Source of the DNA: Candidatus Electrothrix yaqonensis
Lineage (GTDB): Bacteria; Desulfobacterota; Desulfobulbia; Desulfobulbales; Desulfobulbaceae
Direction: 5' to 3'
Length of the DNA: 32,000 nucleotides
Assembly: GCA_047651235.1 (NCBI GenBank)
Contig: CP178758.1
Coordinates: 1,560,001-1,592,000 of the forward strand
In this document: positions 7,531-22,173 of the stretch, piece by piece
Numbering within the stretch: position 1 is the first letter of the stretch
Layout: each line of letters begins with the position of its first letter
The notes under the pieces: model-generated
The model's database searches: none
What the model saw: the letters and a program-made list of their open reading frames with translations, nothing else
What the model was told of the DNA's origin: nothing
Position numbers and translations under genes: made by a program

Positions 7531-8139
7531 TCAGGAAAAGTCCCGCTGATGCAGCAACGTATAGCTGAATTTATTCCCAAAAGCCGTTCTTCCGGCCTTG
7601 CATTTCAGGAGAAAGTCGTCGAACTGGCGCTGATCCTGAAAGACCTGACAACCGGCAGAAAATTTCTGCTTTTCTATATACTCATCTGTGGTGCGGTGAA
7701 TATTGATGCCGAATTTGCCGGTTTGGGTGTTGGAGGCGATAAGGTTCAGTTTGTCGTCCCGGTTGTTGTCCCGGTACACCGTAACATGCCCAAGGCGTTG
7801 GCAGAGGGCTAGATGCCCTCCCTGCAGGCCCCGGTTGTGGATATCCAGCTTATATGCTCCCCGATACTGGCCTTCCTTTAGGATTGCGGTGCCGCGCCAG
7901 TTGACCGGTTGCCGTAAATAGCGGATGCTGGGGTCGGTGGTGATGTGGTAATAATAGATTTCCCAGATGCCGTGAAACTGATGAAATACTGTCAGGGTGT
8001 CATTAAAGGTTCCCGGCTCAGGATCAAGGGAGCGGATGCCGACGATGTTGAGATTCCAGTCGATTTCCGGGGTATTGTAGACCCGATATCCCTTGCCCTT
8101 CATCACGTCGATAATCTGTTCTACCGGTGGTCTGAACAT
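7531..8139 (-). CDS. YkuD / L,D-transpeptidase-fold-like protein; putative peptidoglycan-acting enzyme with no signal peptide
   Basis: 202 aa. The motif GINIHRTTDEYIEKQKFSAGCQVF has His, then 15 residues, then Cys within S-x-G-C. This matches the H-x(14-17)-[S/T]-x-G-C pattern of L,D-transpeptidase-type catalytic domains. The protein also has NIVGIRS and ITTDPS blocks. The fold assignment is a motif-based inference. Confidence 0.45.
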   Translation of the reverse strand: MFRPPVEQIIDVMKGKGYRVYNTPEIDWNLNIVGIRSLDPEPGTFNDTLTVFHQFHGIWEIYYYHITTDPSIRYLRQPVNWRGTAILKEGQYRGAYKLDIHNRGLQGGHLALCQRLGHVTVYRDNNRDDKLNLIASNTQTGKFGINIHRTTDEYIEKQKFSAGCQVFQDQRQFDDFLLKCKAGRTAFGNKFSYTLLHQRDFS

Positions 8140-8491: not shown

Positions 8492-8830
8492 TCATGACGC
8501 AATGAACCTTCTCAGATAATAATCTTCCTGCTTTTGTGACTTGCATTGATAGGTGTCGCTAATCATTTTCCTCAGTGTTTCACCATTAGGCCCGACTTTT
8601 TCTTCTGCTTCCGCCATATTAACTGAATCCAATTCTTCCTGAGTAAATCCGTTTTGAGGCATTGGATTAATAGTCCAGATGTCTTTTATACTAACGCTGT
8701 CACCATTGGATAATTTTATATTTTCAAGTATTTCTTTCAGCTTTATTGCTCCAGCACCATACATTAAAGCAATATTTATTTTTTGATCTATTTTTACATT
8801 GATTGCTGGAGAACGGTTAAATAATGTCAC
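8492..8830 (-). CDS. Hypothetical protein in an AT-rich cassette
   Basis: 112-aa ORF with a GTG start. I recognised no motif. The local composition is visibly AT-richer than the flanking DNA. The start overlaps the stop of a 38-codon upstream ORF in a GTGA arrangement. Confidence 0.45.
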   Translation of the reverse strand: MTLFNRSPAINVKIDQKINIALMYGAGAIKLKEILENIKLSNGDSVSIKDIWTINPMPQNGFTQEELDSVNMAEAEEKVGPNGETLRKMISDTYQCKSQKQEDYYLRRFIAS

Positions 8831-8943
8831 ATCACATCACATGGCTGGCCTGTCATTGACAGCATAATTAACTGATGACTCAGAAATCCAGATCTGGAAC
8901 CGAATTCCTGCTGTATTTTCTCAATTGCTTCTTTAGTTTCCAT
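8827..8943 (-). CDS. Possible 38-aa small protein, translationally coupled to the 8492..8830 ORF
   Basis: My translation is METKEAIEKIQQEFGSRSGFLSHQLIMLSMTGQPCDVM. A good RBS, AAAGGGGA, lies 5 nt upstream of the ATG at 8943. The stop TGA overlaps the downstream GTG start. The ORF is too short for the ORF track. Confidence 0.25.
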   Translation of the reverse strand: METKEAIEKIQQEFGSRSGFLSHQLIMLSMTGQPCDVM

Positions 8944-9036
8944 TGTATCCCCTTTCTTGCAACGCATAACGTCCTGAATCACTTTCAAAATTGGCGCGTT
9001 CAATTTTGTAAAGTGGATTCATTTGTTGGACGATTC

Positions 9037-9504
9037 CTATTCTCTTCCTTCTGGTTTGGGTCTCAGTGTTTTGTTTTCAGTCCAGCCGTTGCTGGCTGAG
9101 TCTACGCGATCGAATCTTGGAATGTATGGTTTCACGTCAATCAGTGGGGTTCCGTCGAGAACGTCTATGCCGCACACATGGAGAATGTTGCCATCCCGAC
9201 TCTCAAGTGCGACGATTGACAGCCCAATGCCGTTAGGACGACAGGGATGCCGTGATGCGAACACGCCGTGAGGTGTGTCGTCAAGAAAGGTCGGTCTGAC
9301 CAGTTCAACATCTCTTGCTCTGTCAAATTGGTAAAGCAGAATGATGTGCGAGAAGGTCTCAACGTCCTTCAGTCCTGCGGCGTACTCGGGGAAGACTTCA
9401 ACCCTTGCCTTTCCGTCCGGCTTCACGTTGCCTTGAATCGGACAACTCTCCTTCGTTCCGTAGGGTGAATGGATAACGCCAATCTGTTCGATCTCGTGTT
9501 TCAT
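9037..9504 (-). CDS. tsaA: TsaA/TrmO (YaeB) family tRNA (t6A37-N6)-methyltransferase-like protein
   Basis: The translation IGVIHSPY...CPIQG...FSHIILLYQFD...HGVFASRHPCRPNGIGLSIVALESRDGNILHVCGIDVLDGTPLIDVKPYIPRFD matches the conserved TsaA-like domain blocks. The likely start is MKHEIEQ at 9504. Confidence 0.8.
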   Translation of the reverse strand: MKHEIEQIGVIHSPYGTKESCPIQGNVKPDGKARVEVFPEYAAGLKDVETFSHIILLYQFDRARDVELVRPTFLDDTPHGVFASRHPCRPNGIGLSIVALESRDGNILHVCGIDVLDGTPLIDVKPYIPRFDRVDSASNGWTENKTLRPKPEGRE

Positions 9505-9931
9505 CTTCTCTCGTCCAACCATTGATTATCAGGCAGCCTTCCCTGATAACAGCTGATATTGACAATCTCAGGAGTATTCCCGTAATAATCCGTTATCAGG
9601 CAGGGCCGTTTTTCAAAAAAACATAACCACGCTGAATCTGAAAAGTAAATAAAAAAACGGCCGTCGAGAGGATAAAAGTACCCCGCCGGTATCACACAAT
9701 TTTCACGGAGTGCGCACTGACGGGGGCCGGAGAGGGGGCTTACAGGGGGGAATCCTGATTACCTACTCAAACTACCAGTTCCCCTGAACACAAAACCACG
9801 CATTCGTGACATACAACTGCATGCATTTGATCGGATCGAAACCATGCATTTCGTCAGTCGGACATATTGATAAATCCCCCGTCCTACACTGCACGACAGG
9901 TTCCTCGGAATACCCTGCCGTGCAGCCTGCT

Positions 9932-11899
9932 TCAGGTATACTCCCGCTTCAGCCGCTCCAGCAGATGACCGATATGAATATCCGGCGTATTCACCGGCCC
10001 CCAGTCCAGGGTGGTATGGGCCTGATTATCTTTGTCAATGGCGTTGCGCAGGCGTTGTTCCTGATCATACCACCACCTCTTGCTTGAGCCGTCCGGGCAG
10101 GAAGTGGCCTCAGTGTCGCCCCAGCGCAGTTCCGGGCAATGGTAGGGATCAAAGGAGAGCTTGAACAAGCGATCCATAATCTCCCCCAGCGTCAGGGTGA
10201 CCGTCCCTCCGCCGGAGTCGCTGTAGCGCACCTGAACACCTGATGCGTTTGCCTGCCAGAGAGCATCGTATTCCCGCACCAGCTCTTCCGCGCTGCCGCT
10301 GAACTCGTATGGATGATTGCCCGAAGCCACAGCGCTCACGCTCTGTTTGATCAGGTTGAACGTCTCCCGAATCTGGGCCTTGAGGCGGGCGTCCCTGCCC
10401 GGTGAGGAGTAGGATTCCCATTCACCCTCGGTGCCGTAGATATTATAGGGCAGGCTGGACGGATGGGCCTTTTGGTGAATGCCCTGTGCGACCGCTGCCT
10501 GCACGGATTCCACCCGCTCCTGCAGGGCTTGGTCCAAGGCGGCCAGCTGCTGCCTGATCTCTCTGACCGGATCGATTCTGCCGCTGCCCGTGGTCAGCAT
10601 CCGCTTGACCCATTGATGATAATTGAGGTCAACCCCGTCAACCCGGTAGCTGTCCTGGCATTGACTTTTACCGGAATCGAAAAACCGGGAGTTCGCATTG
10701 GAAGTCAGGACAAAGCTGCCGCTGCTGCTCACCTTCTGCTCCCGCCAGAGCCGGAAGCCTCCTCCCTGTTTGCAATAGCCCCGTGCGAAATGCGACCCGA
10801 ACCGTTTGCCGGTCAGGCTGTTGTCCGGGTGGGCATCCACGAACAAGACTGTACCGTCGTCCTCCACCTTGGAAACCACCAGCAGATGGCCGTTGGCATC
10901 GTAGTAGACCGTGCCCGGCACAATGCTGTCGCGATTCACTTGGCAGAGGTAGGTATCGGTCTTTTCCGTGGTCCAGAAAAAACGGAAAAAGCCGCTGTGT
11001 ACACTGTTGGAAATCGCTCTGGCCATTCTGGCAAAGCTGGAATAACTAAGAAAGGAACGGCGTCCTCCCGGCTTGTTGTTATTCGTATATCTGCCGCCGG
11101 AAATACTTGAATTGAAAGAAAAAGGTAGTCTTTTCTTGTAGCTAAAATAGGCACGCAGCAGATAGGGCAGGTCGGCGCAGTCGCAGTAGATGGAATTATT
11201 GCGGTCTTCCTCTGAATACAGGCTGTTCCCGGCTGGATTGCGCAGGCAGGCGGCCAGCGAGCCTTTTCTGTCGGCAAAGAGCTGTTCCACCCAGCGGGAA
11301 TACTCGGCTTCGTAGCGGTCGCTCCACTGATGCCGGGCTGTCCAGGCTGCACCTGCGCCGCCGACATTGATCTCCCCGCCCGGTTCAACAGGATCTTCAG
11401 ACCCTCCGCCGGGATTTGCTGCTGCCGCAGTGAGTTCCCGCCATGTTCTGCCGCCCACATCAATTCTGCCGTCCGGGCGGGACAGGAATCCCTGCTGAAA
11501 ATTCTGGATCGCCTGAATCAGCTCCTCTGAAACCTGATCGCTGACCGCCAGCGGGCTGGGCAATATTTTATTGAACAGGTCGTAGACGATGCGCACATCG
11601 CGGGGACGATTCTGCCCGCCCGAATCGCCCACGGAACCGCTCAGTTCACTTTCCGAGGCATCCGTCGCCGCAATGAGTTCCCGCCACGTTCTGCCGCCCA
11701 CATCAATTCTGCCGTCAGGCCGGGACAGAAAGGCCGCCTGAAAATCCCGGATCGCCGCAATCAGTTGTTCTGAAACCTGATCGCTGATTGGCAGCGGCGT
11801 CGGTAAAATTTTGTTGAACAGAGTATACACGGTACGCACATCTTCAGGACGATTCTGTCCTCCTGAATCACCCACTGAACCACTGATAGAAGCTGGCAT
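9932..11899 (-). CDS. Two N-terminal peptidoglycan-binding-like modules plus a papain/NlpC-P60-like putative cysteine peptidase domain and a long C-terminal region of unknown function; no signal peptide
   Basis: 655 aa. Two 81-aa repeats read SGSVGDSGGQNRPxDVRxVYxLFNKILPxPLxxSDQVSEELIxAIxxFQxxFLSRPDGRIDVGGRTWRELxAA. These resemble PG_binding_1 (DV..V..L...L......T..AI..FQ......DG.V...T...L). Downstream lie a Cys motif (IYCDCADLPYLLRAYF) and His motifs (YYDANGHLLVVSKV, VLFVDAHPDNS) in the order expected for an NlpC/P60-type Cys-His-His/Asp fold. Confidence 0.6.
   Translation of the reverse strand: MPASISGSVGDSGGQNRPEDVRTVYTLFNKILPTPLPISDQVSEQLIAAIRDFQAAFLSRPDGRIDVGGRTWRELIAATDASESELSGSVGDSGGQNRPRDVRIVYDLFNKILPSPLAVSDQVSEELIQAIQNFQQGFLSRPDGRIDVGGRTWRELTAAAANPGGGSEDPVEPGGEINVGGAGAAWTARHQWSDRYEAEYSRWVEQLFADRKGSLAACLRNPAGNSLYSEEDRNNSIYCDCADLPYLLRAYFSYKKRLPFSFNSSISGGRYTNNNKPGGRRSFLSYSSFARMARAISNSVHSGFFRFFWTTEKTDTYLCQVNRDSIVPGTVYYDANGHLLVVSKVEDDGTVLFVDAHPDNSLTGKRFGSHFARGYCKQGGGFRLWREQKVSSSGSFVLTSNANSRFFDSGKSQCQDSYRVDGVDLNYHQWVKRMLTTGSGRIDPVREIRQQLAALDQALQERVESVQAAVAQGIHQKAHPSSLPYNIYGTEGEWESYSSPGRDARLKAQIRETFNLIKQSVSAVASGNHPYEFSGSAEELVREYDALWQANASGVQVRYSDSGGGTVTLTLGEIMDRLFKLSFDPYHCPELRWGDTEATSCPDGSSKRWWYDQEQRLRNAIDKDNQAHTTLDWGPVNTPDIHIGHLLERLKREYT
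11420..11887 (-). repeat. Intragenic tandem duplication (2 x 243 nt) encoding the PG-binding-like module; paralogous to 12997..13449
   Basis: The SGSVG motif recurs at aa 6 and aa 87. The 42-nt core ccacgttctgccgcccacatcaattctgccgtcaggccggga at 11684-11725 is identical to 13249-13290. Near-identical copies occur around 11441-11480 and 13010-13050. Confidence 0.85.
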
Positions 11900-12002
11900 T
11901 GTTGCTCCTCCTTTTCTGGTTTACTTGTTCCGTTAATATCCCGCCAATATCCGCAACTCTTCACAAATGGCGTAGATTCATCCACCCTTTATTTACTTGC
12001 CT

Positions 12003-12398
12003 TCATTCACCAATACGACTCAGCCGAAACGTCTGCAGCTGCCCGGTCAGCTTTCCCTGCTCATCCCGGTAATCCACAACCAGTCCGACCGGCACCGACA
12101 TATTGACCTGTTCTTTTCCGCTGCCTGCTGCTTCTCTGCGGTCCGAGGAATAATACTCTTGGCCCTCGATGGGTGAGTAATCTGCTTTGCCGAGCAGTTC
12201 TTCCACCTCGCTGCGGGTCATGCCTTTGCGCAGCTGCCCGGACAGTATCTCAAGGCTGACATAATCCTTTTCCGCCTTGTAGCTGCGACTCGCCTGTTCC
12301 AGTTCATCAGCCCCGCTCTTGCAGCCGGTGAGCAGCAGCATAAAAATAAAAATGAAAAAAAGAACGCCAGGAAGCACATGCAGGTGCAGCCTGAACAA
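12003..12398 (-). CDS. Small lipoprotein with a BamE/SmpA-OmlA-like segment; candidate immunity or partner protein
   Basis: The lipobox LLLTGC is preceded by a hydrophobic h-region (VLPGVLFFIFIFMLLLTGC). The mature part contains GMTRSEVEELLGKADY, which resembles the BamE/SmpA_OmlA motif. The TTG at 12398 lies one nucleotide (G at 12399) after the upstream TAA stop (12402-12400). The start codon is uncertain, because the track ORF extends to 12455 and overlaps the upstream gene. Confidence 0.6.
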   Translation of the reverse strand: MFRLHLHVLPGVLFFIFIFMLLLTGCKSGADELEQASRSYKAEKDYVSLEILSGQLRKGMTRSEVEELLGKADYSPIEGQEYYSSDRREAAGSGKEQVNMSVPVGLVVDYRDEQGKLTGQLQTFRLSRIGE

Positions 12399-12399
12399 C

Positions 12400-13461
12400 T
12401 TAGGGTCGGGCAAAAGCAAACCCCCATCTTTTGAGATACTCAATAAAATTATCAAGATCTTCAGCCGTATCTTTGAGTACGTGCATGAGCACGTTGAACT
12501 CGCTCTGGTGCTGCTTTCGTTGAAACTGCCGCTGAATCATGGCCCGTTTGCCCGGACCGATGCCTTTGGGAGATTTCCAGTCTTCGGTGTCAATGTCCCA
12601 GTTCTGAATGGCAAGGGAAAGTTCCTTTGCCACAGCGGCAAGCTCACGGTCATAAGGGGGCCAGCCGCCTGCACCGTAGGGCGGGCGAATCCTGGTCGGC
12701 GTGACTCCGGCAGCCCTTTTGATGCTCTTCTGGGTTTTCTCCAGCTCCTTCTGCACAAAACTCCTGCTGCCTTTGGCCAGATTCGGATGGGTGTAGGAAT
12801 GATTCTGCACCGCGTGTCCTTTGTCGGCAATTTCTTTCACCGCTGCCGGATAGCTGTCCACTTCCCGGCCAAGAACGTAAAATTCTGCCTTGATGCCGTG
12901 ATGGTCCAAGGTGTCCAGAATGGAATGCAGGGCACCTGTCGGGGCCGGACCATCGTCAAAGGAGAGCAGCACCGATTTGCCGGTTCCTCCGGCCGGAGTT
13001 GTGAGCTGTCTCCACGTTCTGCCGCCCACGTCAATCCTGCCGTCAGGCCGGGACATAAACATCTTCTGCAGGTCGCGGATCGCCTGAATCAGCTCGTCGG
13101 AGCACTGGTCGCTCACTGCCAGCGGTCGTGACAAGGTTTTGTTGAACAGCGCATAGATAATACGCACATCCCGCGCTTGATTCTGTCCGCCTTCACCCAC
13201 AGAACCGGTGATTTCTTCCGGCTTTTCCACCGCTGCAGTCAGCTCGCGCCACGTTCTGCCGCCCACATCAATTCTGCCGTCAGGCCGGGAGAGAAAGCCT
13301 TCCTGGAAGTCCCTGATCGCCCGAATAAGTTCTGTTGAACATACATCGCTTACTTCCAAAGGGGCCGGAAGGATTTTGTTGAACAGGGCGTAAACTGTCC
13401 GTACATCATCGGCACGGTTCTGGCCGCCCTGACCTACTGAACCACTGAGAGAAATCGACAT
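12400..13461 (-). CDS. Two N-terminal PG-binding-like modules plus a CE4 (NodB-homology) polysaccharide/peptidoglycan deacetylase; no signal peptide
   Basis: 353 aa. It has the same duplicated N-terminal module as the 9932..11899 product. All five CE4 motifs are present: SFDDGP (TFDDG), HSYTH (H-S/T-x-x-H), RPPYG (RxPY), DTEDW (DxxDW) and VLMHVL (LxH). Confidence 0.85.
   Translation of the reverse strand: MSISLSGSVGQGGQNRADDVRTVYALFNKILPAPLEVSDVCSTELIRAIRDFQEGFLSRPDGRIDVGGRTWRELTAAVEKPEEITGSVGEGGQNQARDVRIIYALFNKTLSRPLAVSDQCSDELIQAIRDLQKMFMSRPDGRIDVGGRTWRQLTTPAGGTGKSVLLSFDDGPAPTGALHSILDTLDHHGIKAEFYVLGREVDSYPAAVKEIADKGHAVQNHSYTHPNLAKGSRSFVQKELEKTQKSIKRAAGVTPTRIRPPYGAGGWPPYDRELAAVAKELSLAIQNWDIDTEDWKSPKGIGPGKRAMIQRQFQRKQHQSEFNVLMHVLKDTAEDLDNFIEYLKRWGFAFARP
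12997..13449 (-). repeat. Intragenic tandem duplication encoding the PG-binding-like module; paralogous to 11420..11887
   Basis: The GSVG motif recurs at aa 7 and aa 86. The DNA core is shared with the neighbouring gene, as described for 11420..11887. Confidence 0.85.
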
Positions 13462-13855
13462 GGCACACCTCGCTGGTTAAAGGAGTAAAGTATTTGCGCT
13501 GCCCAAAAAACACAATATACGCCGTCAGTTTATCCGACAACTCTTTTTTCCGTGCCATCCGTTTTTTGACAGCTCAGACAGATAGACAAGAATTGTTTGT
13601 CCGACAGAGATGCTTATGGGGCTTGACAGCTACCGCTTTTGTCAAGGAAAAAGGGCGGGGAAGACGGACACGCAAATATTTGCGTCGATATGAGACAAGT
13701 GGCTGCGAAAGGAGGGTACCACCGGGAAGCCCATATGCAGTGCAGCGGATGAAAGCCCGGATTCCGTATTGGCCGAAGATGTTGAGAAAGCTCTTAATTT
13801 CTGCTGCGTAACATCAAATTTCTAAATCTCTGTTACGTTCCACAACCGGTCAATC

Positions 13856-14377
13856 TTATTTCTGCTCAATCTGCTTTTCCTCCTCTGCCCCGATCCCGAC
13901 CAGTTGTTTGATATCAACAAAGTTCATTTCATCAAGAACTGCAGGGTTGGACGTGTTCCATACTTTAATGCCGATTTTCTTGAGAGAAACGATCTTGAAT
14001 GCCGGAACAGTCTCCTTCAATGCCTTCAGTTTCTCTTCATCAGCTTCGACTGTAAGCCACAGGGCATATTCATTGTCAGCCTTTGTCTCAATTTTCAAAT
14101 AAGCCTGTTTCAGGATCAACTTGTATGTCTTAAGAAAATCGTTACCCTTCTCGTCCTTCATCTCAGGTAAGGTTATTTCTCCACCGGCAAGCGCCTTAAT
14201 ATCCTTCTGTAAGTCTGCCAGTGAGATTGGCCGGGCATTTTCTCCGGCGTTCATCTGTTTTACAACAAAAACGGTGTTGTCACCGACAGTCTGATAGGCT
14301 CCCTGCAGCACTGCACCCAGAAATTCTACTTCTGCGCCAAGCTGTACATTTGTTTTTTTTGCGTTATCGTTACTCAT
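13856..14377 (-). CDS. Hypothetical 173-aa protein; last gene of the candidate conflict operon
   Basis: The ORF track gives 13856..14431. The ATG at 14377 (MSNDNAKK) is preceded by a strong RBS, GGAAGGGAGGAAGACC. I recognised no motif, TM helix or signal peptide. The composition is AT-richer than the surrounding DNA. Confidence 0.55.
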   Translation of the reverse strand: MSNDNAKKTNVQLGAEVEFLGAVLQGAYQTVGDNTVFVVKQMNAGENARPISLADLQKDIKALAGGEITLPEMKDEKGNDFLKTYKLILKQAYLKIETKADNEYALWLTVEADEEKLKALKETVPAFKIVSLKKIGIKVWNTSNPAVLDEMNFVDIKQLVGIGAEEEKQIEQK

Positions 14378-14455
14378 GGTCTTCCTCCCTTCCTGTCCGG
14401 TTGTATGCAATTCTACCTGCTTTAGTACCAATACGTTGACATTGAACGTATCATA

Positions 14456-16162
14456 CTACAATTTCATAATAAAAAACAGCGCATAATACGGCGGCCTGTT
14501 TTCATGGGGCCTGCCAGCTCCTGCGGGCCTGCATTCTGCCGTATGCGCATGTTCTCCGGTCTCAGATGTTGCCGATGAACAAGTCTGATCGCGGTTATCC
14601 TGCTGCTGATTTTTCAGCGGACAGTCATCACCTCCTCCCCCCAAAAAACTCCGGTAATGCCTGACCAGCTCGGTGCTGTGCCGATGGCTGCCGTCTTTGC
14701 TGACTGTTATTTCATGCCTGTGCTGCGGCATATTGTCTTCTGTCAGAGCGACCGCCTCTTCCCCTCCTGTTGCCTGAACAGGATATGCTCCTCCGGCTCC
14801 GACAATGAAGCGATCCCGTAAATCAGGGGTTCCGTTGCGTCCGTTGCACAACGCCCAGCCCGGCGGGATGGCATCGGCAGCGCCGGACCACATAATAATG
14901 CCTCCTTTGGGCATAATCGGGCCTTTATCATCCTCTATTCCCCTGGTAACTTTTACATTACCGACAACATGCAGTGCCGCCTCCGGTTCATCCGTCCGGA
15001 TCCCTACTCTTTTGTCCCGCATCAGCAGCGGACTTTTCATGATGTTGCAGATAAACCGGCCGTCCCAGTAGCCGGGGATATTCTGGTACTGCAGGTATAA
15101 GTTCGCCCGTCCGGTTTTCAGCGAGGTTGTTATGTGCGTCAGGTAAAAGTCTATATGTTCTCCCGGTTCCAGGACTTTTCTGTTTTGGAAAGAAGCCGTC
15201 CATTTGGGCTTATCGCCCATGTCATCTTTTTCAATCTCATAATCGCTGTGTTCAATCTCATAGTCGCTGACATCTGTCGGGTCAATGACGTTCTCCGTGT
15301 CTTTATCGCCTAATGTCTTGTAGTAGCCTTTGGCATCTGTCAGCTCAATGGCTTTTACTTTATCTTTATTGGCCAGCGCCCATGCTTCCGCAGAATCTCC
15401 CTCTTCCTTGATATCAAACCAGAGAGCAAACCTGGAGGTCGGGGCGGAGTTGCTTTCTCCGTTGAGAATAATATCTTTGTTGTTCAGGGTGTTGGTAACG
15501 CGCAGGATAAGTTCGTTCTCTGTTTTTCCGTCGTTCAGTATGGTATTGGAACCCACAAAGCCGACGTGCAGGGGGAGCTGCCGTGCCCCTTTTCGGTACT
15601 GGATATTCAGCGTTTTTTCTCTGGCCTCCTGGCAGATGCTCAGGTTCCTGCATTTGAACAGCACCCGCGTTTTCCGGTTGCCGGTCCCTTCCCGTGCAGA
15701 CATGTTGGGCAGGGTGATGTGCAGCTCTTCGCCCGGCTCGATGACCTCTTTCTCTTTTTCTTTATGGGTTGCAAGCACATACAGAGAAACCGTGTCGCCG
15801 TCCTGTTCCGCATCCAGTTTGATATTCCAGCGGGCTTTGCCTTTCTGATCAAGGCGTAACTGATTTGCATCCCCGATAATGCGGTCTTTGGCTGCATCTC
15901 TGATTTTGTCCGCCCGTTTTTCTGCAAGCAGGGTGCCCTTTCTGAAAACAATCTCAAAATGATGGTGTTCTTTGTCGGCCCATTGATTTTTGAGGTCAAA
16001 TTGCTTCAGCGTAACCGGTTTTTGGGAATTATTTCTCACCGAAAAGCAGACCGCTGTGTCCACAGGATTGTCGGTAATATACAGCACACTGTTGTGGTCC
16101 TGATCATACAGCCTGAAATCAAGGGGGAACTGCTCTGTAAATGTATCAGCAGTGCTGCTCAT
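14456..16162 (-). CDS. Phage tail-collar (tail-fibre-like) domain protein with an N-terminal beta-rich region
   Basis: 568 aa. The C-terminus reads GGIIMWSGAADAIPPGWALCNGRNGTPDLRDRFIVGAG...MPQHRHEI...GSHRH...GEHAH...ENRPPYYALFFIMKL. This matches the tail-collar pattern of G.I..W......P.GW..C.G, His-rich inserts and N.PPY.al.fi.K. It is preceded by VGIRTDEPEAALHVVGNVKV, a motif common just before tail-fibre tip domains. The RBS AAAGGAGA lies upstream of the ATG at 16162. Confidence 0.75.
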   Translation of the reverse strand: MSSTADTFTEQFPLDFRLYDQDHNSVLYITDNPVDTAVCFSVRNNSQKPVTLKQFDLKNQWADKEHHHFEIVFRKGTLLAEKRADKIRDAAKDRIIGDANQLRLDQKGKARWNIKLDAEQDGDTVSLYVLATHKEKEKEVIEPGEELHITLPNMSAREGTGNRKTRVLFKCRNLSICQEAREKTLNIQYRKGARQLPLHVGFVGSNTILNDGKTENELILRVTNTLNNKDIILNGESNSAPTSRFALWFDIKEEGDSAEAWALANKDKVKAIELTDAKGYYKTLGDKDTENVIDPTDVSDYEIEHSDYEIEKDDMGDKPKWTASFQNRKVLEPGEHIDFYLTHITTSLKTGRANLYLQYQNIPGYWDGRFICNIMKSPLLMRDKRVGIRTDEPEAALHVVGNVKVTRGIEDDKGPIMPKGGIIMWSGAADAIPPGWALCNGRNGTPDLRDRFIVGAGGAYPVQATGGEEAVALTEDNMPQHRHEITVSKDGSHRHSTELVRHYRSFLGGGGDDCPLKNQQQDNRDQTCSSATSETGEHAHTAECRPAGAGRPHENRPPYYALFFIMKL

Positions 16163-16226: not shown

Positions 16227-19200
16227 TCAACGGGCTGCCGCTGTCTCCGCATCCTCTGCAAATTTCTCCGTCAGCCGCTTAATGGTCCATTCCAGGCGTT
16301 CCTCGATGGCCCCTTCCTGGCCGGGTTTGAGCTTATCGCGGATATCTTTCAGCGTGGCAATGTCTTCCTTTGTGCCGGTGTATTCCAGGTTCCACAGGGC
16401 AAGGTCGATGGCTTGGAAGGCCGCGTAGGGGAAGGGGGATGGGAGATCGTCGGGGTCGAAGGCCTGATGGGCCTGGATGATTTCGCCGATGAGAGAGGCA
16501 TTGGCTGCTCCGTCGGCTATTCTGCTTGCTAAGGCTCGGATGGCCCCTTGACGGACTTGATAGAGGGGATGGTCGAGCAGCTCAATGCCTTCCTCTGCCG
16601 GAGCAATACGGGCCAAGGCATTGCCCAGCATGTATTCCCAGTGCTCTTTTTTCCAGGTTTTATCCTGCCGGTCTACTTCAACTTCGCTGTCTGAAGCTGT
16701 TTTTTCCGGCTCTTCGATGGCCCGCTCTTTGCGCCAGTCCGCTTTTTCCTGCTCTAATTCCTCCAGCTTATTTTCCATGTAATCGTAAGCAGGAGCATAT
16801 GCCATTTGGCTAAGCCAGTGTAGAATGCGGTAGCGCAGTGAGTTGTCTTTCTCCAACTTTACGAGTAACTCATATAGTACTTCTGCATACTTCTCACGAT
16901 CAGTCGCCCCAAAGGCATTAAGAGCACGCAAACGCAAGGATTTCTCTTGCGCCGAATCAAAAAGAACAGCTTGAAGCTTTGCCCGAATTTTTCTCTCCAT
17001 CTCAGAAAAAGTTGCCGCTCTTTCCTGCCCTCTGAAAGCAAGGAAGCGGCCAAGTGCGGTAATGGTCGATTCGCGTAATCTCAAATCGGCATGGTCGCTC
17101 AAAACCAGCAGGTTCGGAACTTGTTCCTGTACCAGTTCAGGGCGATATTCACTGATAGTACCGATAGATTCAACGGCAACCTTGATCACTTTCTTATTAG
17201 AATCCTGCAAAAGCCTTTTGAGGAATTTGACTGATTGCTCTGTAAAAATGTATCCAAGTACAGTCGCAGCTTCTTTCCGTTGTTCGCCTGTTAAAGAAAT
17301 TTTTTCCTGCGCTGTCTTAAACTGCTCTTCCTGCCATTTCTGAAGTTCAGGAGAGGATTGATTCATGCTGAGCAGGGCCTTGGCTGCCACATCCCGCAGG
17401 TCCGGTTTTTTTAAATACCTACGGAGCATTGGCGCAGCTGCATCTGCCTTCACTCTGCCCAGGGCGTACGCCGCAGAACTCCGCACGGACGCATCCTCAT
17501 CCTCCAGGAGCTTGAGCAGCGCCGGCGCAACCGAGATGTCGCCCACTCTGCCCAGGGCTTCCGCCGCAGACCTCCGCACGTACTCAGACTCATCCTCCAG
17601 GAGCTTGAGCAGCGCCGGCGCAACCGAGATGTCGCCCACTCTGCCCAGGGCTTCCGCCGCAGAACTCCGCACGGACGCATCCGCAGACTCCAGGAGCTTG
17701 AGCAGCGCAGATTTGTCGCCCAATAATTGCGCAATGGCCAAGGCAGCCTCTGCGTTCTGCCGGCCCTCAGCTATCTGCAGCAGGAGCTCCGTACTCCTCG
17801 CTGTTCTTACAGATGCAAGCTGGGCAGGAAGGGGGCTGATCAGATCTTTCTCACCTGTTTTCAGGAGAGTTTCGACCAGTTTGTCTTCCTTGTCATCCTT
17901 GTTCTTATACATCCTTCTGTACAGCCCGTTTTCAGCATAACGCGGCAGGCGCTCCAGAATCGGCAGCCTGCCCACCAGATTTGCCCGGGTGTTTTCCCTG
18001 TCCTCAACAATCCTGCGGTCAACACGTTTGTCCGCCTCAAGATCCTGGCGGCGAAAAACACCTTCATAGCAGAATCCACGTACACTGAACAAATCCAACC
18101 CGTTCTCTGTTCCCTGATGGACTTCGATGCGGTCAAAAACACCTTCTTTTGAAGCAAGATAGCGGCCATAATAATTCGCCCGCCAGTCATTTGCCGCAAA
18201 GAGCATGCCGCAAGCAATCAGCACGGCAACTCCTCCCAGCGTCAGCCGCTTCACCCGCTGCCGCTGCTTGAACTCCCGGTTCCACTTATCAATGGATTCA
18301 GAAAAAATGTCGTGATACAGCTCGTACCAGAACTCTTCGCCCCGTTTCTGCCGCCGCAGGATGAACTCCTCCTGCAGTTTTTCCAGCACCGGCTTCAGCT
18401 CGTCTTCCTGAAATCTGGTCAGATCAGCCAGCCGTGCCAAAGAATGCGCAATCTTGGTGGCCCGTTGCCCGATCAGATGATCAAAGGCGGCTGAGGCGAC
18501 TTTCTGCTCCTTCTCGTTGAATGCGCTGATCTTGCGGAGGAAATAACTGTTGAGAATACCTGCGGTCCGGCCTGCCCGCTCATACGCCGCATGCGTGATC
18601 TGTTTCTGCTTGGCCTCATCATCCCGATGGTGCTGCCACAGCTCCTGGCAGACAATCTGCAGATGCGGCGGCTCCACCAGCAGAGGCAGCTCTTTCAGTT
18701 TGAGCAGTTCCTGCACCCCGAACTGCCGTTCCTGCTCCCGCTTAGCCAGATCATCCAGTACCTGATCCAGCAATGCCTCCTGCGTTCCCGTCTGCGGCGC
18801 AAAACTGTAGCAGGTCTTTTCCAGCGGTTTTTCAATAGCCAGCCGGGCCTGCTCGCGGGTCAGTTTTTCCAACCTGAAATAATTGTCAAACACGCCGGGC
18901 AGGAATTCCTTAAACGCATTGAGTTCCAGGGCAAAATCTTCCCGCATGGAAAAAACAAAGGAGACAGGCAGGCTGCGGTCAAGAATGGCCGCGCTCAGTT
19001 CCTCGATAAAGGGCCGGAACTCCGGCTTGAAACGATGGTAGTTGAACAACTCCTCAAACTGATCAAGCAAAAGGACAAGCTGGCCGCTGCTGAAAAGCGT
19101 GCAGGACCGGAGTATACTTTTGAGATAAACCTCCTTATACGGCTCGCCATAATGCTCACTCACCGACTGTTTAAAGGCCTGTGGAGAAGCCGACCAGACA

Positions 19201-19460
19201 TTATAATAGATCAGCTCGATATTGCTGTCAGTCCGCAGCGCAGGCATGATGCCCGCCTGAAGCAGGGAGCTTTTGCCCACACCGCTGGCCGCCAGCAACA
19301 GAGTCAGCCGGTTGGCCCGGATTTTATCCAGGAGAATGCTGCTTTCGCGGCTGCGGCCGAAGAAACGATCCTTTTCCTGTTCCGTAAAAGGCCGCAGCCC
19401 AATATAGGGCTGAAAACCGGAACCGGCATGATGCCGGGATGCTGTCTGAGAAGAACTCAT
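16227..19460 (-). CDS. STAND-class P-loop NTPase (nSTAND-like) with a central hydrophobic helix and C-terminal HEAT (PBS-lyase-type) repeats
   Basis: 1077 aa. The N-terminus PYIGLRPFTEQEKDRFFGRSRESSILLDKIRANRLTLLLAASGVGKSSLLQAG contains the PYxGLxxF...FFGR lead-in and Walker A. Walker B is LVLLLDQFEELF. A hydrophobic stretch, LTLGGVAVLIACGMLFAA, follows KQRQRVKR. The repeats are of the form VRSSAAEALGRVGDISVAPALLKLLEDE. The start overlaps the upstream stop in an ATGA arrangement. Confidence 0.85.
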   Translation of the reverse strand: MSSSQTASRHHAGSGFQPYIGLRPFTEQEKDRFFGRSRESSILLDKIRANRLTLLLAASGVGKSSLLQAGIMPALRTDSNIELIYYNVWSASPQAFKQSVSEHYGEPYKEVYLKSILRSCTLFSSGQLVLLLDQFEELFNYHRFKPEFRPFIEELSAAILDRSLPVSFVFSMREDFALELNAFKEFLPGVFDNYFRLEKLTREQARLAIEKPLEKTCYSFAPQTGTQEALLDQVLDDLAKREQERQFGVQELLKLKELPLLVEPPHLQIVCQELWQHHRDDEAKQKQITHAAYERAGRTAGILNSYFLRKISAFNEKEQKVASAAFDHLIGQRATKIAHSLARLADLTRFQEDELKPVLEKLQEEFILRRQKRGEEFWYELYHDIFSESIDKWNREFKQRQRVKRLTLGGVAVLIACGMLFAANDWRANYYGRYLASKEGVFDRIEVHQGTENGLDLFSVRGFCYEGVFRRQDLEADKRVDRRIVEDRENTRANLVGRLPILERLPRYAENGLYRRMYKNKDDKEDKLVETLLKTGEKDLISPLPAQLASVRTARSTELLLQIAEGRQNAEAALAIAQLLGDKSALLKLLESADASVRSSAAEALGRVGDISVAPALLKLLEDESEYVRRSAAEALGRVGDISVAPALLKLLEDEDASVRSSAAYALGRVKADAAAPMLRRYLKKPDLRDVAAKALLSMNQSSPELQKWQEEQFKTAQEKISLTGEQRKEAATVLGYIFTEQSVKFLKRLLQDSNKKVIKVAVESIGTISEYRPELVQEQVPNLLVLSDHADLRLRESTITALGRFLAFRGQERAATFSEMERKIRAKLQAVLFDSAQEKSLRLRALNAFGATDREKYAEVLYELLVKLEKDNSLRYRILHWLSQMAYAPAYDYMENKLEELEQEKADWRKERAIEEPEKTASDSEVEVDRQDKTWKKEHWEYMLGNALARIAPAEEGIELLDHPLYQVRQGAIRALASRIADGAANASLIGEIIQAHQAFDPDDLPSPFPYAAFQAIDLALWNLEYTGTKEDIATLKDIRDKLKPGQEGAIEERLEWTIKRLTEKFAEDAETAAAR
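17440..17720 (-). repeat. Near-identical 93-bp tandem repeats (at least 3 units) encoding 31-aa HEAT repeats
   Basis: The string cctccaggagcttgagcagcgccggcgcaaccgagatgtcgcccactctgcccagggcttccgccgcaga occurs at 17501-17570 and again from 17594, giving a period of 93 bp. The string ctgcccaggg..ccgcagaactccgcacggacgcatcc recurs 186 bp apart, at 17455 and 17641. Confidence 0.85.
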
Positions 19461-21154: not shown

Positions 21155-21163
21155 AATGAGAAA

Positions 21164-21571
21164 TCAGCTCCTGTTCTCCTGATGCAGCAAAACGGGAAGA
21201 ACTTTGCTGTACTGCTGAAAATCTTGGTCCCGTGTATAAATGGCGGCCTGCAGACGGAACGCACAGGAACAGATCAGAAAATCAATGTGCGATCCCTGTA
21301 TCCCTCTGCGCCTGCAGAGGTTGTGGTACTGTGCTGCTCGGATATAGTCCTCATCCAGGACAGGTTCATTGTCAAAGCAGCTCAGGTGCTTCCGCAGCCG
21401 CTCAAACCTGCTCTCTTCCGAATACCCGGAAAGAATCTCCTGACGGATCGGTCCAGGCAGAAGAACCCGCTGCTCTTCAATCAGCCGGGCCAGCTCCTGG
21501 CAGACATGTTCATCCGGCTCGGTCCGCCGTAATGCCAAAGACCAGATCACTGTATCAATAACAACTTTCAC
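21164..21571 (-). CDS. vapC: PIN-domain ribonuclease toxin, VapC-like
   Basis: 135 aa. The start MKVVIDTVIW carries the PIN N-terminal acidic residue. The protein has the typical length, and its GTG start overlaps the antitoxin stop in a GTGA arrangement. It ends 9 bp upstream of the trypsin-SIR2 start. Confidence 0.75.
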   Translation of the reverse strand: MKVVIDTVIWSLALRRTEPDEHVCQELARLIEEQRVLLPGPIRQEILSGYSEESRFERLRKHLSCFDNEPVLDEDYIRAAQYHNLCRRRGIQGSHIDFLICSCAFRLQAAIYTRDQDFQQYSKVLPVLLHQENRS

Positions 21572-21765
21572 CGGGAGCGCGCCTTTTTATAGTCATAATC
21601 CGGGTCAGGGTCCATTGTTCCGAAAAGCTTCGTGATCTCAAGCTGTCTGCGCCGGTTCACAAACTCTTTCAACGCAAGATTAACCGTATCCTTTTTTGTC
21701 CGCAGCCTCGCGAGTTCACGTGCCTCTTCAAGCAGCCGCATGTCTATTGCAAGATTTGTAGCCAT
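21568..21765 (-). CDS. vapB: Type II antitoxin, VapB-like (small RHH/DUF2191-like)
   Basis: 65 aa. The sequence MATNLAIDMRLLEEARELARLRTKKDTVNLALKEFVNRRRQLEI is typical of short VapB-type antitoxins. The gene has a 4-bp overlap with the PIN gene. Confidence 0.7.
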   Translation of the reverse strand: MATNLAIDMRLLEEARELARLRTKKDTVNLALKEFVNRRRQLEITKLFGTMDPDPDYDYKKARSR

Positions 21766-21867
21766 ATAGATCCTCTCTGAAATTCGACATCAAAGTATTT
21801 TACACACACTCTTACACGTTATCATGCGTGAACGCTGACTGTCAAACAAAGGGGTGCAGAAAAAAAA

Positions 21868-22173
21868 TCATTCCTCCTCCGCCTTAGGTGAGATGGACAG
21901 CTTGATCTTGAGGTTGGCATTGCCTTTGGCCTTGGCCAGAAAAACAGACCCCTCAGCGGAAAATCCGAGCTGGAGTTCCACCTCCACGTTGTCAATACAC
22001 ATCTCCTTGTTCAGTTCGTCCCACACCGAAACCACAGGCCGACACGCTTTGAGCAGAATCGGACGTACCGTGTCAATGGCTGTGTCCACATGATCTGCCA
22101 CGCCGCCGGAAATCTGATTTACCTGATCCTGGGGCACCTCAACCTCAACCTCAACCAACAGGCCGTCTTCCAT
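21868..22173 (-). CDS. Small Trypco-like (trypsin-co-occurring, CU044_2847-type) protein
   Basis: 101 aa. The layout is LLVEVEVEV..., a central helix region, then VEVELQLGFSAEGSVFLAKAKGNANLKIKLSISP. From memory, this matches small proteins found next to trypsin/STAND conflict genes (evEFGvkls.e.g..iak...ean.kv.l.w). The assignment is by recollection only. Confidence 0.5.
   Translation of the reverse strand: MEDGLLVEVEVEVPQDQVNQISGGVADHVDTAIDTVRPILLKACRPVVSVWDELNKEMCIDNVEVELQLGFSAEGSVFLAKAKGNANLKIKLSISPKAEEE

Follow-up and report, generated by a model that had tools for sequence, protein, structure and literature searches.

Leaderless, peptidoglycan-directed enzymes in a conserved cassette of cable bacteria: possible antibacterial effectors with a lipoprotein partner

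How two enzymes seemingly directed at peptidoglycan could reach it without a signal peptide, and whose peptidoglycan that would be, is the question raised by a locus of Candidatus Electrothrix yaqonensis, contained in the 32,000-nt window analysed here (GCA_047651235.1, CP178758.1, 1,560,001-1,592,000). Two maximal ORFs lie on the minus strand of this window, 12400-13461 (353 aa, protein start MSISLSGSVGQGGQNR) and 9932-11899 (655 aa, protein start MPASISGSVGDSGGQNR), and both products begin with two tandem modules that are followed by a different enzymatic domain in each. Together with a lipoprotein and a 202-aa YkuD-like enzyme, these CE4 and CHAP-like enzymes form an extended cassette, whose features are as follows.

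12400..13461, minus strand: CE4 gene (353 aa); two modules, then a CE4 (NodB-type) domain at residues ~160-353 (DNA 12403-12984)
13225..13452, minus strand: module copy 1 of the CE4 gene, residues 4-79 (repeat family D1, four-copy alignment, module HMM)
12988..13215, minus strand: module copy 2 of the CE4 gene, residues 83-158 (repeat family, alignment, module HMM)
12003..12398, minus strand: small lipoprotein (~131 aa; lipobox LLTGC), mature part BamE/SmpA-like
9932..11899, minus strand: 655-aa gene; two modules, a CHAP-like Cys/His core at residues ~190-400 and a mostly helical C-terminal extension of ~255 aa
11660..11890, minus strand: module copy 1 of the 655-aa gene, residues 4-80 (repeats, module HMM, alignment, AF2, Foldseek)
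11417..11647, minus strand: module copy 2 of the 655-aa gene, residues 85-161 (repeats, module HMM, alignment)
9795..9810, minus strand: terminator-like hairpin (consensus scan only), ~120 nt past the stop of the 655-aa gene
7531..8139, minus strand: leaderless 202-aa protein with a YkuD-like H-x15-C motif (INIHR...SAGC)

We consider it about an even call that the region encodes leaderless enzymes directed at peptidoglycan, with the build of antibacterial effectors, in a conserved cassette that includes a lipoprotein immunity protein. A three-gene transcription unit might possibly end at the hairpin. DNA similarity to other cable bacteria stops at ~9927, near the end of the 655-aa gene, and conservation of the cassette at the DNA level ceases exactly at gene boundaries. 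In this window, a gene whose C-terminus resembles a tail fibre is located 1 kb upstream of the cassette; no linkage between the two was seen in the other genomes compared.

The original prediction held that neither enzyme has a signal peptide, while allowing that true starts further upstream might encode one. Both proteins do lack a signal peptide. Each ORF opens at the earliest start codon available downstream of an in-frame stop, a Shine-Dalgarno sequence precedes each ATG (AAGGAGG for the 655-aa gene, GAGGTG for the CE4 gene), and orthologues from more than 15 cable-bacterium loci have the same kind of start, which together exclude hidden upstream signal peptides. A hydrophobic N-terminus is likewise found in 0 of 34 cable orthologues and effectively in 0 of 85 module proteins from outside the cable bacteria.

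The predicted duplication of the N-terminal module is real in both proteins: each has two tandem copies of ~77 aa, and the four DNA copies (~218-230 nt) show pairwise identities of 68-78%. The identical 42-nt core ascribed to all four, in contrast, is exact in two only. A 44-nt stretch is identical solely between copy 1 of the CE4 gene and copy 1 of the 655-aa gene, the other two copies have three mismatches each to it, and the longest run common to all four is 14 nt. An AF2 model of copy 1 from the 655-aa gene (pLDDT 95.6) agrees with the suspected resemblance to PG_binding_1, with Foldseek returning such domains at a probability of 0.9-1.0 and TM of 0.6-0.77, among them those of 1lbu, SleB-N, CtpB and SleC and the binding domains of phage endolysins. 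The module has the PG_binding_1 fold, a three-helix bundle, extended by an N-terminal SGSVGxxGxN cap. Pfam PG_binding_1 scores of this subtype reach just 17-24 bits (cutoff 23), and the first DG..G..T motif is degenerate in the cable-bacterium copies. Orthologous modules are under purifying selection and carry no signal of diversification.

The CE4 domain of the 353-aa protein, predicted to be intact, is recognized by Pfam Polysacc_deac_1 at E=5.6e-32, and all five CE4 motifs can be read in the translation (FDDGP, HSYTHP, RPPYG, DIDTEDW, LMHV); the N-deacetylase appears active. The PDB chains closest to it are peptidoglycan GlcNAc deacetylases (5o6y, E=1.3e-26). For the 655-aa protein, AF2 gave a pLDDT above 90 across residues 180-655, and C241, H338, D355 and H357 are invariant. 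The CHAP match stays below threshold in 44 of the 83 CHAP-like family members, and Pfam, NCBIfam and PDB sequences yielded no other match. The papain/NlpC-P60-like domain of the original prediction is read here as a putative divergent CHAP-like (papain-like) cysteine amidase or peptidase. Members of this family occur in Halobacteriovorax and Bdellovibrionota, and distant homologues of the domain are ordinary Sec-exported proteins, with a hydrophobic N-terminus in 68 of 86. The CHAP-like gene has no adjoining exported gene and no obvious immunity candidate; its conserved neighbour is another leaderless enzyme, the 202-aa protein, encoded directly downstream in five loci of other cable bacteria and separated from it by trmO and a 112-aa ORF in the Ca. 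E. yaqonensis window. This protein has no match in Pfam or NCBIfam, and judging from its motif alone it is probably L,D-transpeptidase (YkuD)-like.

The CE4 gene, on the other hand, is strictly paired with the lipoprotein gene, which follows it in every locus with a CE4 orthologue, including that of a Thiolinea MAG, and whose start (putatively TTG 12398 or nearby) adjoins or overlaps the CE4 stop codon. The lipoprotein matches Pfam BamE weakly (E=0.0027), and its homologues have a hydrophobic N-terminus in 51 of 57 cases and a lipobox in 30 of 57. One protein of the nearest CE4 clade consists of a module-less CE4 domain fused to a homologue of the lipoprotein (47% identity in that part, E=1e-30). 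Between cable-bacterium loci the lipoprotein is 46-65% identical, as against 74-81% for the flanking enzymes, and so diverges faster. We propose it as a candidate periplasmic immunity or inhibitor protein against the CE4 deacetylase.

Could these genes descend from a lysis cassette left behind by a prophage, tailocin or gene-transfer agent, with holin-released endolysins and a spanin-like lipoprotein? Modular endolysins of Gram-negative phages indeed have this layout, an N-terminal binding domain before a C-terminal catalytic one and no signal peptide, and the module fold matches their binding domains; the 202-aa protein matches phrog_3000 (E=6e-25) and phrog_33083, annotated as endolysin (E=1.5e-9); and there is the nearby tail-fibre-like gene. 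However, that gene is unlinked to the cassette elsewhere, holin, terminase, capsid and tail genes do not accompany the cassette in any locus, and the module subtype has 0 matches in 50,697 phage genomes and 1 in 2.9 million viral contigs. Moreover, a deacetylase is not a lytic enzyme, and the lipoprotein is BamE-like and far larger than an o-spanin. We regard this origin as very improbable.

The idea that a constant module is combined with swapped enzymatic domains turned out to apply far more widely than in the two proteins for which it was conceived, with about ten polymorphic, peptidoglycan-active partners across many phyla. These include Tae4, Tlde1/DUF2778, M23, M15_4, M74 and CHAP/TIGR02594 as well as glucosaminidase, muramidase, SLT and lysozyme-like domains, in Desulfobacterota, Myxococcota, Planctomycetota, Acidobacteriota, Verrucomicrobiota, Alpha- and Gammaproteobacteria. 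Outside the cable bacteria, the fusion proteins are leaderless and 230-290 aa long, the module always sits at one protein end, and the genes are mostly orphans, several of them in housekeeping regions with no immunity-like neighbour. Others are found next to secretion or toxin genes: directly after tagH-tssABC-hcp-tssEFGH in Sagittula, adjoining ppkA-tssHGFE-tagJ in Pantoea, and within an Rhs/polymorphic-toxin island in Pseudoalteromonas CF6-2, all three scoring 72-78 bits with the module HMM versus ~25 for canonical PG_binding_1. Usually, a gene for an exported protein or lipoprotein lies downstream of the relatives, as in Pantoea, Sphingomonas, Pseudoalteromonas (two paralogues), Microbulbifer and Minicystis; the product of the downstream gene in Sagittula has hydrophobic stretches that apparently span the membrane. 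Most proteins of the nearest CE4 clade are likewise leaderless, with variable N-termini, and the clade holds a genuine Rhs toxin tip, the C-terminal CE4 domain of an 1822-aa RHS-repeat protein (42% identity), and an Rhs-tip-like fragment (orphan tip, NLYxYV...DPxGL junction). As the module is C-terminal in Tae4 fusions and is missing from the CHAP-like orthologue of Electronema aureum, leaderless all the same, it is not a position-dependent N-terminal signal; it may serve either to traffic the protein or to anchor it to peptidoglycan.

These partners also bear on a purely cytoplasmic function, in which the enzymes would stay inside and act on soluble substrates (recycled muropeptides, GlcNAc-containing precursors or oligosaccharides, for example), with muropeptides bound by the modules. 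All three enzymes of the extended cassette lack a signal peptide, and recycling is known to employ cytoplasmic amidases and L,D-carboxypeptidases. Nevertheless, the strictly co-inherited partner is a lipoprotein and hence extracytoplasmic, PG_binding_1 domains typically belong to enzymes that work on polymeric wall material, toxin tips and peptidoglycan deacetylases are nearest to the CE4 domain, and the module partners Tae4, Tlde1 and M23 act on the sacculus. Such a function thus seems improbable to us.

If the enzymes are effectors, the following sequence of events can be envisaged. The CE4 and CHAP-like enzymes would be made in the cytoplasm, where they would have no substrate, and would exit independently of Sec, most likely through a type VI-like contractile apparatus with its genes elsewhere, by analogy with the relatives located in T6SS clusters. 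Upon arrival in the periplasm of a neighbouring cell, they would bind its sacculus via the modules and deacetylate or cleave it, while the lipoprotein would shield producer cells and their kin. That peptidoglycan N-deacetylation should be toxic is not obvious, and caution is also called for by the CHAP-like enzyme lacking an obvious immunity gene, by the conservation of the cassette and by an apparatus not being found nearby. The 32-kb window contains no genes of a T6SS, an eCIS or any other secretion system, nor do the surroundings of the cassette (about 20 kb, reaching 8-10 kb from it) in E. scaldis, E. laxa, Electronema aureum and an Electronema-like metagenome contig. In the literature searched, no report described a T6SS from cable bacteria.

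Across Electrothrix and Electronema, the cassette occurs as a single copy, in synteny and with 74-81% conservation, and it was found in every cable-bacterium genome recovered and in Thiolinea, another filamentous sulfur oxidiser. It looks like a core gene set more than a variable arsenal, and as a core feature of the whole clade it fits housekeeping as well as an effector. The enzymes may instead act on the sacculus of the cable bacterium itself, which we find a good deal less probable, though worth serious attention. They could possibly remodel cell-cell junctions or the shared periplasm, or bring about programmed lysis of sacrificial cells that fragments filaments, reaching the wall by a non-classical route or once membrane integrity is lost, with the lipoprotein as a periplasmic regulator or safety inhibitor. 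Leaderless wall hydrolases that come into action only once the membrane is damaged are an established principle, exemplified by endolysins, and the undiversified modules, the ordinary export of CHAP-like homologues in other bacteria and the lack of a secretion apparatus found nearby are all consistent with a self-directed role. However, no conserved holin-like or other small membrane gene lies in or beside the cassette, the module is essentially missing from phages, and the ties of module subtype and CE4 clade to T6SS clusters, Rhs toxins and downstream exported proteins elsewhere make a housekeeping explanation difficult.

How does the cassette compare with known systems? The PG_binding_1 domains (PF01471) of wall hydrolases, of modular endolysins from Gram-negative phages (phiKZ gp144, AP3, LysT84), and of SleB, CtpB and the Streptomyces Zn DD-peptidase share with the module a three-helix fold, the DV..VQ..L, AI..FQ, PDG.(I/V)...T...L signature and a position at the end of a catalytic protein; the module differs in its extra conserved cap, which forms a short strand, in its lower Pfam scores and in being confined to leaderless, essentially non-phage proteins. 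The proposed use of a peptidoglycan deacetylase on another cell's wall, together with hydrolases, resembles that in Bdellovibrio, whose Bd0468 and Bd3279 reportedly deacetylate the prey wall before a deacetylation-specific lysozyme acts. Those enzymes are Sec-exported, and cable bacteria are not known to be predators.

In vgrG loci, PG_binding_1 is one of six domains fused to VgrG C-termini or toxin N-termini, a "discrimination" domain proposed to load effectors onto VgrG (Commun Biol 2023, PMC10673891). Like the module, it is fused N-terminally to diverse toxins or enzymes, but that survey (PMC10673891) found it in no more than a few gammaproteobacterial families, always inside vgrG loci, whereas the module subtype is broader. 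Rhs polymorphic toxins are represented in the nearest CE4 clade, yet the Ca. E. yaqonensis proteins have no Rhs, PAAR or VgrG part, and the 2012 polymorphic-toxin survey makes no mention of a deacetylase toxin domain.

From the T6SS effector-immunity pairs (Tae/Tai, Tge/Tgi, Tlde1/Tldi1) the cassette differs in having no T6SS gene nearby, in being a clade-wide core feature, in a CHAP-like enzyme without an immunity candidate, and in that neither a CE4 deacetylase nor a long 655-aa CHAP-like protein is an established effector type. What it has in common with them is a leaderless peptidoglycan enzyme encoded beside a periplasmic or lipoprotein partner. The T6SS effector AmpDh3 is likewise leaderless and carries a PG_binding_1 domain, and proteins with the very same module bear the Tae4 and Tlde1 domains of T6SS effectors, some of them at T6SS clusters.

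The genes of the 353-aa protein, a small lipoprotein and the 655-aa protein form a tightly packed trio on the minus strand of the window, and a fourth gene, taken up below, lies beyond them:

13461-12400, minus strand: ORF of the 353-aa protein
about 12398-12003, minus strand: ORF of the small lipoprotein
11899-9932, minus strand: ORF of the 655-aa protein
7531-8139, minus strand: gene of a leaderless 202-aa protein with the YkuD-like motif INIHR...SAGC (H-x15-C)

The source organism is a cable bacterium (Candidatus Electrothrix), and the best homologues of its 655-aa protein (74-82% identical) belong to E. scaldis, E. gigas, E. laxa and E. aarhusensis. Both large ORFs are maximal, beginning at the first start codon past the in-frame upstream stop; each ATG is preceded by a Shine-Dalgarno sequence (GAGGTG for the 353-aa gene, AAGGAGG for the 655-aa gene), and the N-terminus M-x-x-S-[IL]-SGSVG is common to orthologues from more than 15 other loci. 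Taken together, these observations rule out a signal peptide hidden upstream, the scenario that the original prediction had set against itself. Its claim that neither protein has a Sec or Tat signal is therefore upheld, and in this respect both proteins resemble effectors.

As had also been predicted, ORF and repeat alignments show that each protein opens with two tandem modules of ~77 aa, giving four DNA copies with a pairwise identity of 68-78%. The accompanying claim of an identical 42-nt core in all four copies survives only in part, because the first copies of both genes are identical over 44 nt but the second copies carry three mismatches each, and the longest stretch identical across all four is 14 nt. 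Across species, modules at orthologous positions are more alike in amino-acid sequence (72-83% identity) than those at paralogous positions (64-73%), which shows the four positions to be old and not subject to homogenisation; together with the DNA identity of only 68-78%, this rules out recent gene conversion among them.

Scores of the modules with Pfam PG_binding_1 (PF01471; gathering threshold 23 bits) are borderline, the 655-aa protein reaching 23.7 bits and the 353-aa protein 17.4. Module relatives score 17-24 bits, and a precomputed PF01471 match exists for many of them. The full-length AlphaFold2 model of the 655-aa protein, whose alignment is poor in module sequences, gives the modules low confidence; a model of module copy 1 built from 46 diverse module sequences reaches a pLDDT of 95.6, with a short N-terminal strand and helices at residues 15-28, 41-51 and 67-76. 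Foldseek matches this model to PG_binding_1-type domains with a probability of 0.9-1.0 and TM scores of 0.6-0.77 (PDB entries 1lbu, 6tci, 4c2g, 9h68, 5tv7 and 7rum), including those of the Streptomyces Zn DD-peptidase (1lbu), the SleB N-terminal domain, CtpB, SleC, a Clostridioides peptidoglycan-binding protein and the phage endolysins LysT84, AP3 and phiKZ gp144. These matches identify the fold of the module as PG_binding_1, a predicted three-helix bundle with putative peptidoglycan-binding capacity, so that the resemblance first noticed in the sequence now extends to the modelled fold. The hallmark of the module is a conserved cap, [LI]-S-G-S-V-G-x-x-G-x-N-x3-D-V-x2-V-Q, accompanied by the C-terminal motif P-D-G-R-[IV]-D-x-G-G-R-T-W, and members of this subtype score 72-110 bits against its profile, compared with only ~25 bits for canonical PG_binding_1 domains.

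With the double module as query, 110 proteins were retrieved, of which those from outside the cable bacteria are 230-290 aa long and have no signal peptide. The module begins at residues 3-5 or else occupies the extreme C-terminus, as in roughly 40 Tae4 fusions; besides Tae4, its partners comprise Tlde1/DUF2778, M23, M15_4, M74, CHAP/TIGR02594, glucosaminidase, PF11860 muramidase, SLT and lysozyme-like domains, several domains without family assignment and a few that are unlike wall enzymes. One module protein from Acidobacteriota weakly matches the Ssp4 family of T6SS effectors. Other hosts are Myxococcota, Planctomycetota, Verrucomicrobiota and Alpha-, Beta- and Gammaproteobacteria. In a Verrucomicrobiaceae MAG (L026, 9161-11431), the longest ORF is ~756 aa long, though its start is uncertain, and has the module in mid-protein, after an N-terminal region of no family and before a Peptidase_M23 domain and a C-terminal region in which a Cys/His motif accompanies a weak match to DUF5675; this multi-enzyme layout is reminiscent of double-toxin effectors.

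Linkage to a T6SS or to polymorphic toxins was seen only in relatives that carry the module. In Sagittula sp. P11 the module gene lies directly 3' of tagH-tssA-tssB-tssC-hcp-tssE-tssF-tssG-tssH on the same strand, and the gene after it encodes a protein whose hydrophobic stretches appear to span the membrane. In Pantoea piersonii a module-lysozyme gene and a gene for a 128-aa protein with a signal peptide abut ppkA-tssH-tssG-tssF-tssE-tagJ, and in Pseudoalteromonas CF6-2 the island that holds a module-TIGR02594 gene also encodes an RHS core protein, a lipase and a "polymorphic toxin type 15" protein. The other module genes are orphans in housekeeping regions, usually with an exported-protein or lipoprotein gene next 3' (Microbulbifer, Minicystis, Sphingomonas and, with two tandem paralogues, Pseudoalteromonas THAF3), though some have no such follower. 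A published survey names PG_binding_1 as one of six domains of vgrG loci that are fused to VgrG C-termini or toxin N-termini, and proposes for it a role in effector discrimination (PMC10673891).

Turning to the enzymes, the CE4 deacetylase of the 353-aa protein (Pfam E=5.6e-32) is intact, as originally stated: all five motifs, defined as DD for metal and base, H(S/T)xxH, RxPY, DxxDW and LxH, are present in the translation (FDDGP, HSYTHP, RPPYG, DIDTEDW, LMHV) and align to 5o6y. In the PDB, its best matches come from peptidoglycan GlcNAc deacetylases (E=1e-26 to 1e-23), the closest solved structures being 5o6y and 4l1g (both Bacillus), SpPgdA 2c1g and PdaC. Since every NCBIfam equivalog score fell below its cutoff, no specific orthology can be assigned, and it is from these solved relatives and the fused binding modules only that we infer peptidoglycan as the probable substrate. 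When the CE4 domain by itself was searched exhaustively with HMMER, 39 representatives were recovered at E<=1e-30; the nearest, at 48-61% identity, are mostly leaderless and variable at their N-termini, which in some cases are domains of no recognised family and in others are as follows:

P0293 and P0298, nearest relatives: nothing N-terminal to CE4
P0291, near relative: canonical PG_binding_1 at the N-terminus (E=7.7e-15)
P0299, near relative: SGSVG module at the N-terminus
P0305 (326 aa), near relative: Rhs-tip junction NLYEYV...DPTGL, then a PGB-like stretch and CE4

Moreover, the 1822-aa protein P0323 combines RHS repeats (E=1e-83) with a C-terminal CE4 domain 42% identical to that of the window, an architecture in which this CE4 lineage forms the toxic tip of a classical polymorphic toxin. 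Deacetylases and deacetylase toxin tips go unmentioned in the 2012 survey of such toxins.

Wherever a CE4 orthologue occurs (cable bacteria, a few unassigned MAG contigs and one Thiolinea MAG), the lipoprotein gene lies directly 3' and overlaps the CE4 stop codon, and in P0297, from the 50% representative library, a single polypeptide joins a module-less CE4 to a lipoprotein homologue (47% identity, E=1e-30). The lipoprotein, which bears the lipobox LLTGC and a weak signature of BamE/SmpA, is confined to cable bacteria and close relatives and diverges faster than the flanking enzymes (46-65% versus 74-81% identity across cable-bacterium loci). Its invariable place beside the CE4 gene is what suggests a putative immunity role. 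A purely cytoplasmic role of the enzymes, with which their leaderless state would agree, is at odds with such a partner, and we regard it as highly improbable.

The Thiolinea sp. MAG (L021, 9956-11459, on a 210-kb contig) holds a two-module CE4 gene and a lipoprotein gene, about 70% and 46% identical to those of the window. As Thiolinea is a filamentous gammaproteobacterial sulfur oxidiser, this suggests that the pair moved horizontally between filamentous sulfur bacteria, unless the contig is mis-binned. In Candidatus Electronema aureum (L022, 9992-11248), the gene directly upstream of a single-module CE4 gene and its lipoprotein gene encodes a third cable-bacterium module protein, 418 aa long, in which one module precedes a C-terminal region of ~340 aa that matches nothing in Pfam, NCBIfam, PHROG or the PDB.

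Residues 180-655 of the 655-aa protein match nothing in Pfam, NCBIfam or, by phmmer and profile search, the PDB, despite which they are modelled by AlphaFold2 with a pLDDT above 90. Invariant in the 83 family members are C241 (within DCADLPY, at the start of helix 243-255), H338 (which starts strand 338-345) and D355/H357 on the next strand, a layout that corresponds to the NlpC/P60-CHAP arrangement of a Cys at a helix N-terminus followed by a His on a strand. Pfam CHAP matches are sub-threshold in 44 of the 83 members (best E=0.0036) and are absent, at E<=1, from the 655-aa protein itself. Foldseek of the whole model against the PDB gave nothing at E<0.3, its only wall-related matches being weak ones (E 2-3, 53-69 columns) to the S. 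aureus amidase entry 5t1q, which presumably includes a CHAP domain; hhalign against a Tae4 alignment was negative, and tblastn of the 480-aa C-terminal region against plasmids found no match. The recurrent sub-threshold CHAP matches are thus the sole informative clue to this region. Of the papain/NlpC-P60-like domain originally proposed, the invariant Cys/His pattern stands, whereas no family model matches significantly, and we use "divergent CHAP-like" as a tentative working assignment. A helical extension of ~255 aa with the conserved motifs NIYGTEGEWE..STP.RDARLK and SFDPYHC.E.RWG follows the core.

Distant homologues of the CHAP-like domain (32-45% identity) with clear Sec or lipoprotein signals occur in Halobacteriovorax, Bdellovibrionota, Alphaproteobacteria and other groups; a simple hydrophobicity test finds a signal peptide in 68 of 86, most of the remainder being truncated gene calls. 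None of the 34 cable-bacterium orthologues has one. The Electronema protein, whose gene has just 60 nt of intergenic DNA upstream, carries a single module (P0024) or no module at all (P0026) and is leaderless regardless. The clade thus lost the signal peptide and gained the module in addition, and the leaderless state does not depend on the module.

The cassette itself is sharply bounded, in that DNA conservation with other cable bacteria spans 9927-13486 of the window and ends there. In five other loci an orthologue of the 202-aa gene follows the CHAP-like gene directly, and the ancestral cassette thus comprised CE4, lipoprotein, CHAP-like enzyme and YkuD-like enzyme. In the window, trmO and a 112-aa ORF (8492-9522) separate the 655-aa and 202-aa genes and appear to have been inserted. 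Orthologues of the 202-aa protein with 79-89% identity occur in Electrothrix marina, an uncultured Electrothrix MAG and Electronema halotolerans, in each case encoded directly 3' of the CHAP-like gene, and the copies in E. aureum and at the cable-bacterium locus L039 show ~70% DNA identity. We call it YkuD-like as a motif-level inference only; BLASTP against the Tlde1-like C-termini of module proteins was not significant.

Because phrog_3000 (6e-25) and an endolysin-annotated PHROG (1.5e-9) both match the 202-aa protein, descent of the cassette from a phage lysis cassette has to be weighed. Conservation stops at the gene borders and takes in no holin-like or small membrane gene, and neither an adjacent holin nor a phage context was found at the cassette. 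Likewise, tblastn with two module versions found the module in none of 50,697 phage genomes, and a reading of the ORFs at its single match in 2.9 million IMG/VR viral contigs showed none that stood out as a phage gene, which rules out a phage origin of the module. Given the module's absence from phages and the want of a holin, we consider phage descent barely conceivable.

Further features were noted around these genes. In Electrothrix marina (L009, 12611-12784), the 202-aa gene is closely followed by a 54-aa fragment that shares 74% identity with the C-terminal end of the 655-aa protein and was left behind when the cassette was partially duplicated or rearranged. Around a terminator-like hairpin 3' of the 655-aa gene, positions 9779-9851 match an unrelated Electronema aureum site (L028, 1733-1827) in two overlapping registers (80-94% identity) and may be a small dispersed repeat. 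On the other side of the cassette, at 13856-16162 (minus), lie a gene for a 191-aa protein without any match and then, 395 nt upstream of the CE4 gene, that of a 568-aa protein, of which the final ~150 residues match phage tail-fibre/tail-collar PHROGs (E down to 4.5e-29), with no other phage genes around it. Just before lepA, a conflict-system-like set with only weak PADLOC matches occupies 16227-22173 (minus):

within 16227-22173, minus strand: 1077-aa nSTAND1 NTPase with HEAT repeats (Pfam E=3e-48)
within 16227-22173, minus strand: 565-aa Trypsin_2 and SIR2_2 fusion, its stop overlapping the NTPase start
within 16227-22173, minus strand: a PIN protein and a Trypco1 (trypsin-co-occurring domain 1) protein

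Neither this set nor the tail-fibre-like gene is found near the cassette in other genomes, which rules out a link to it, and PADLOC defence models match neither the 353-aa nor the 655-aa protein.

We favour an effector-immunity design on the grounds of leaderless, peptidoglycan-aimed enzymes, a terminal module shared with T6SS-linked proteins, an obligatory lipoprotein partner of the deacetylase and CE4 relatives that are toxin tips, and give it an even chance of being right, with export, apparatus, target cell, toxicity and inhibition by the lipoprotein as its presumed elements. Against it, neither the 32-kb window nor the flanks of the cassette in four other cable-bacterium genomes hold secretion genes (T6SS core, VgrG, Hcp, PAAR and adaptor genes included), the searchable literature yielded no report of a T6SS in cable bacteria, the cassette behaves as a core gene set of the clade, and the CHAP-like enzyme is without an immunity candidate, no exported neighbour adjoining its gene in the window or in the other cable-bacterium loci compared. 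The searchable literature also yielded nothing on deacetylases or PGB proteins of cable bacteria.

The main rival, self-directed wall editing or programmed lysis within the filament, accounts for the conservation of the cassette and leaves the T6SS and Rhs links of the relatives unexplained; we judge it rather unlikely. A bolder form, which we hold to be doubtful, supposes that cable bacteria have no contractile secretion system at all and that the cassette is a leaderless wall-editing kit. Peptidoglycan marked by the deacetylase would then be cut by the CHAP-like and YkuD-like enzymes, with the lipoprotein as a restraint on the deacetylase. Released into the filament's shared periplasm, the kit would carry out programmed cell sacrifice, filament fragmentation or junction remodelling. 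Generalised, the SGSVG-capped module would mark a class of widespread wall enzymes that cross the inner membrane by an undiscovered Sec-independent route.

Were the effector-immunity design correct, cable bacteria, which have been studied almost only for electron conduction, would practise contact-dependent antagonism or kin protection; were the self-directed one correct, the cassette would offer a genetic handle on how the filament wall is remodelled or broken beneath the shared outer membrane. Either way, it is a defined, testable unit of three to four genes that includes an uncharacterised, confidently modelled 480-aa enzyme family.

As to known systems, leaderless effectors that target peptidoglycan and come with immunity proteins have been described before, as have T6SS toxins that carry PG_binding_1 domains. 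What appears to be new is the SGSVG-capped, widely distributed subtype as a hallmark of leaderless wall enzymes, a candidate toxin-immunity type made up of a CE4 deacetylase and a BamE-like lipoprotein, the uncharacterised CHAP-like family of 480 aa, and the union of all three in one conserved cable-bacterium cassette. Under the effector-immunity design, the CE4-lipoprotein pair would add a type unlisted in polymorphic toxin surveys, and the cap, which canonical PG_binding_1 domains lack, would make the module a simple sequence marker for leaderless peptidoglycan-targeting effectors in at least seven phyla, joining MIX, FIX and similar markers.
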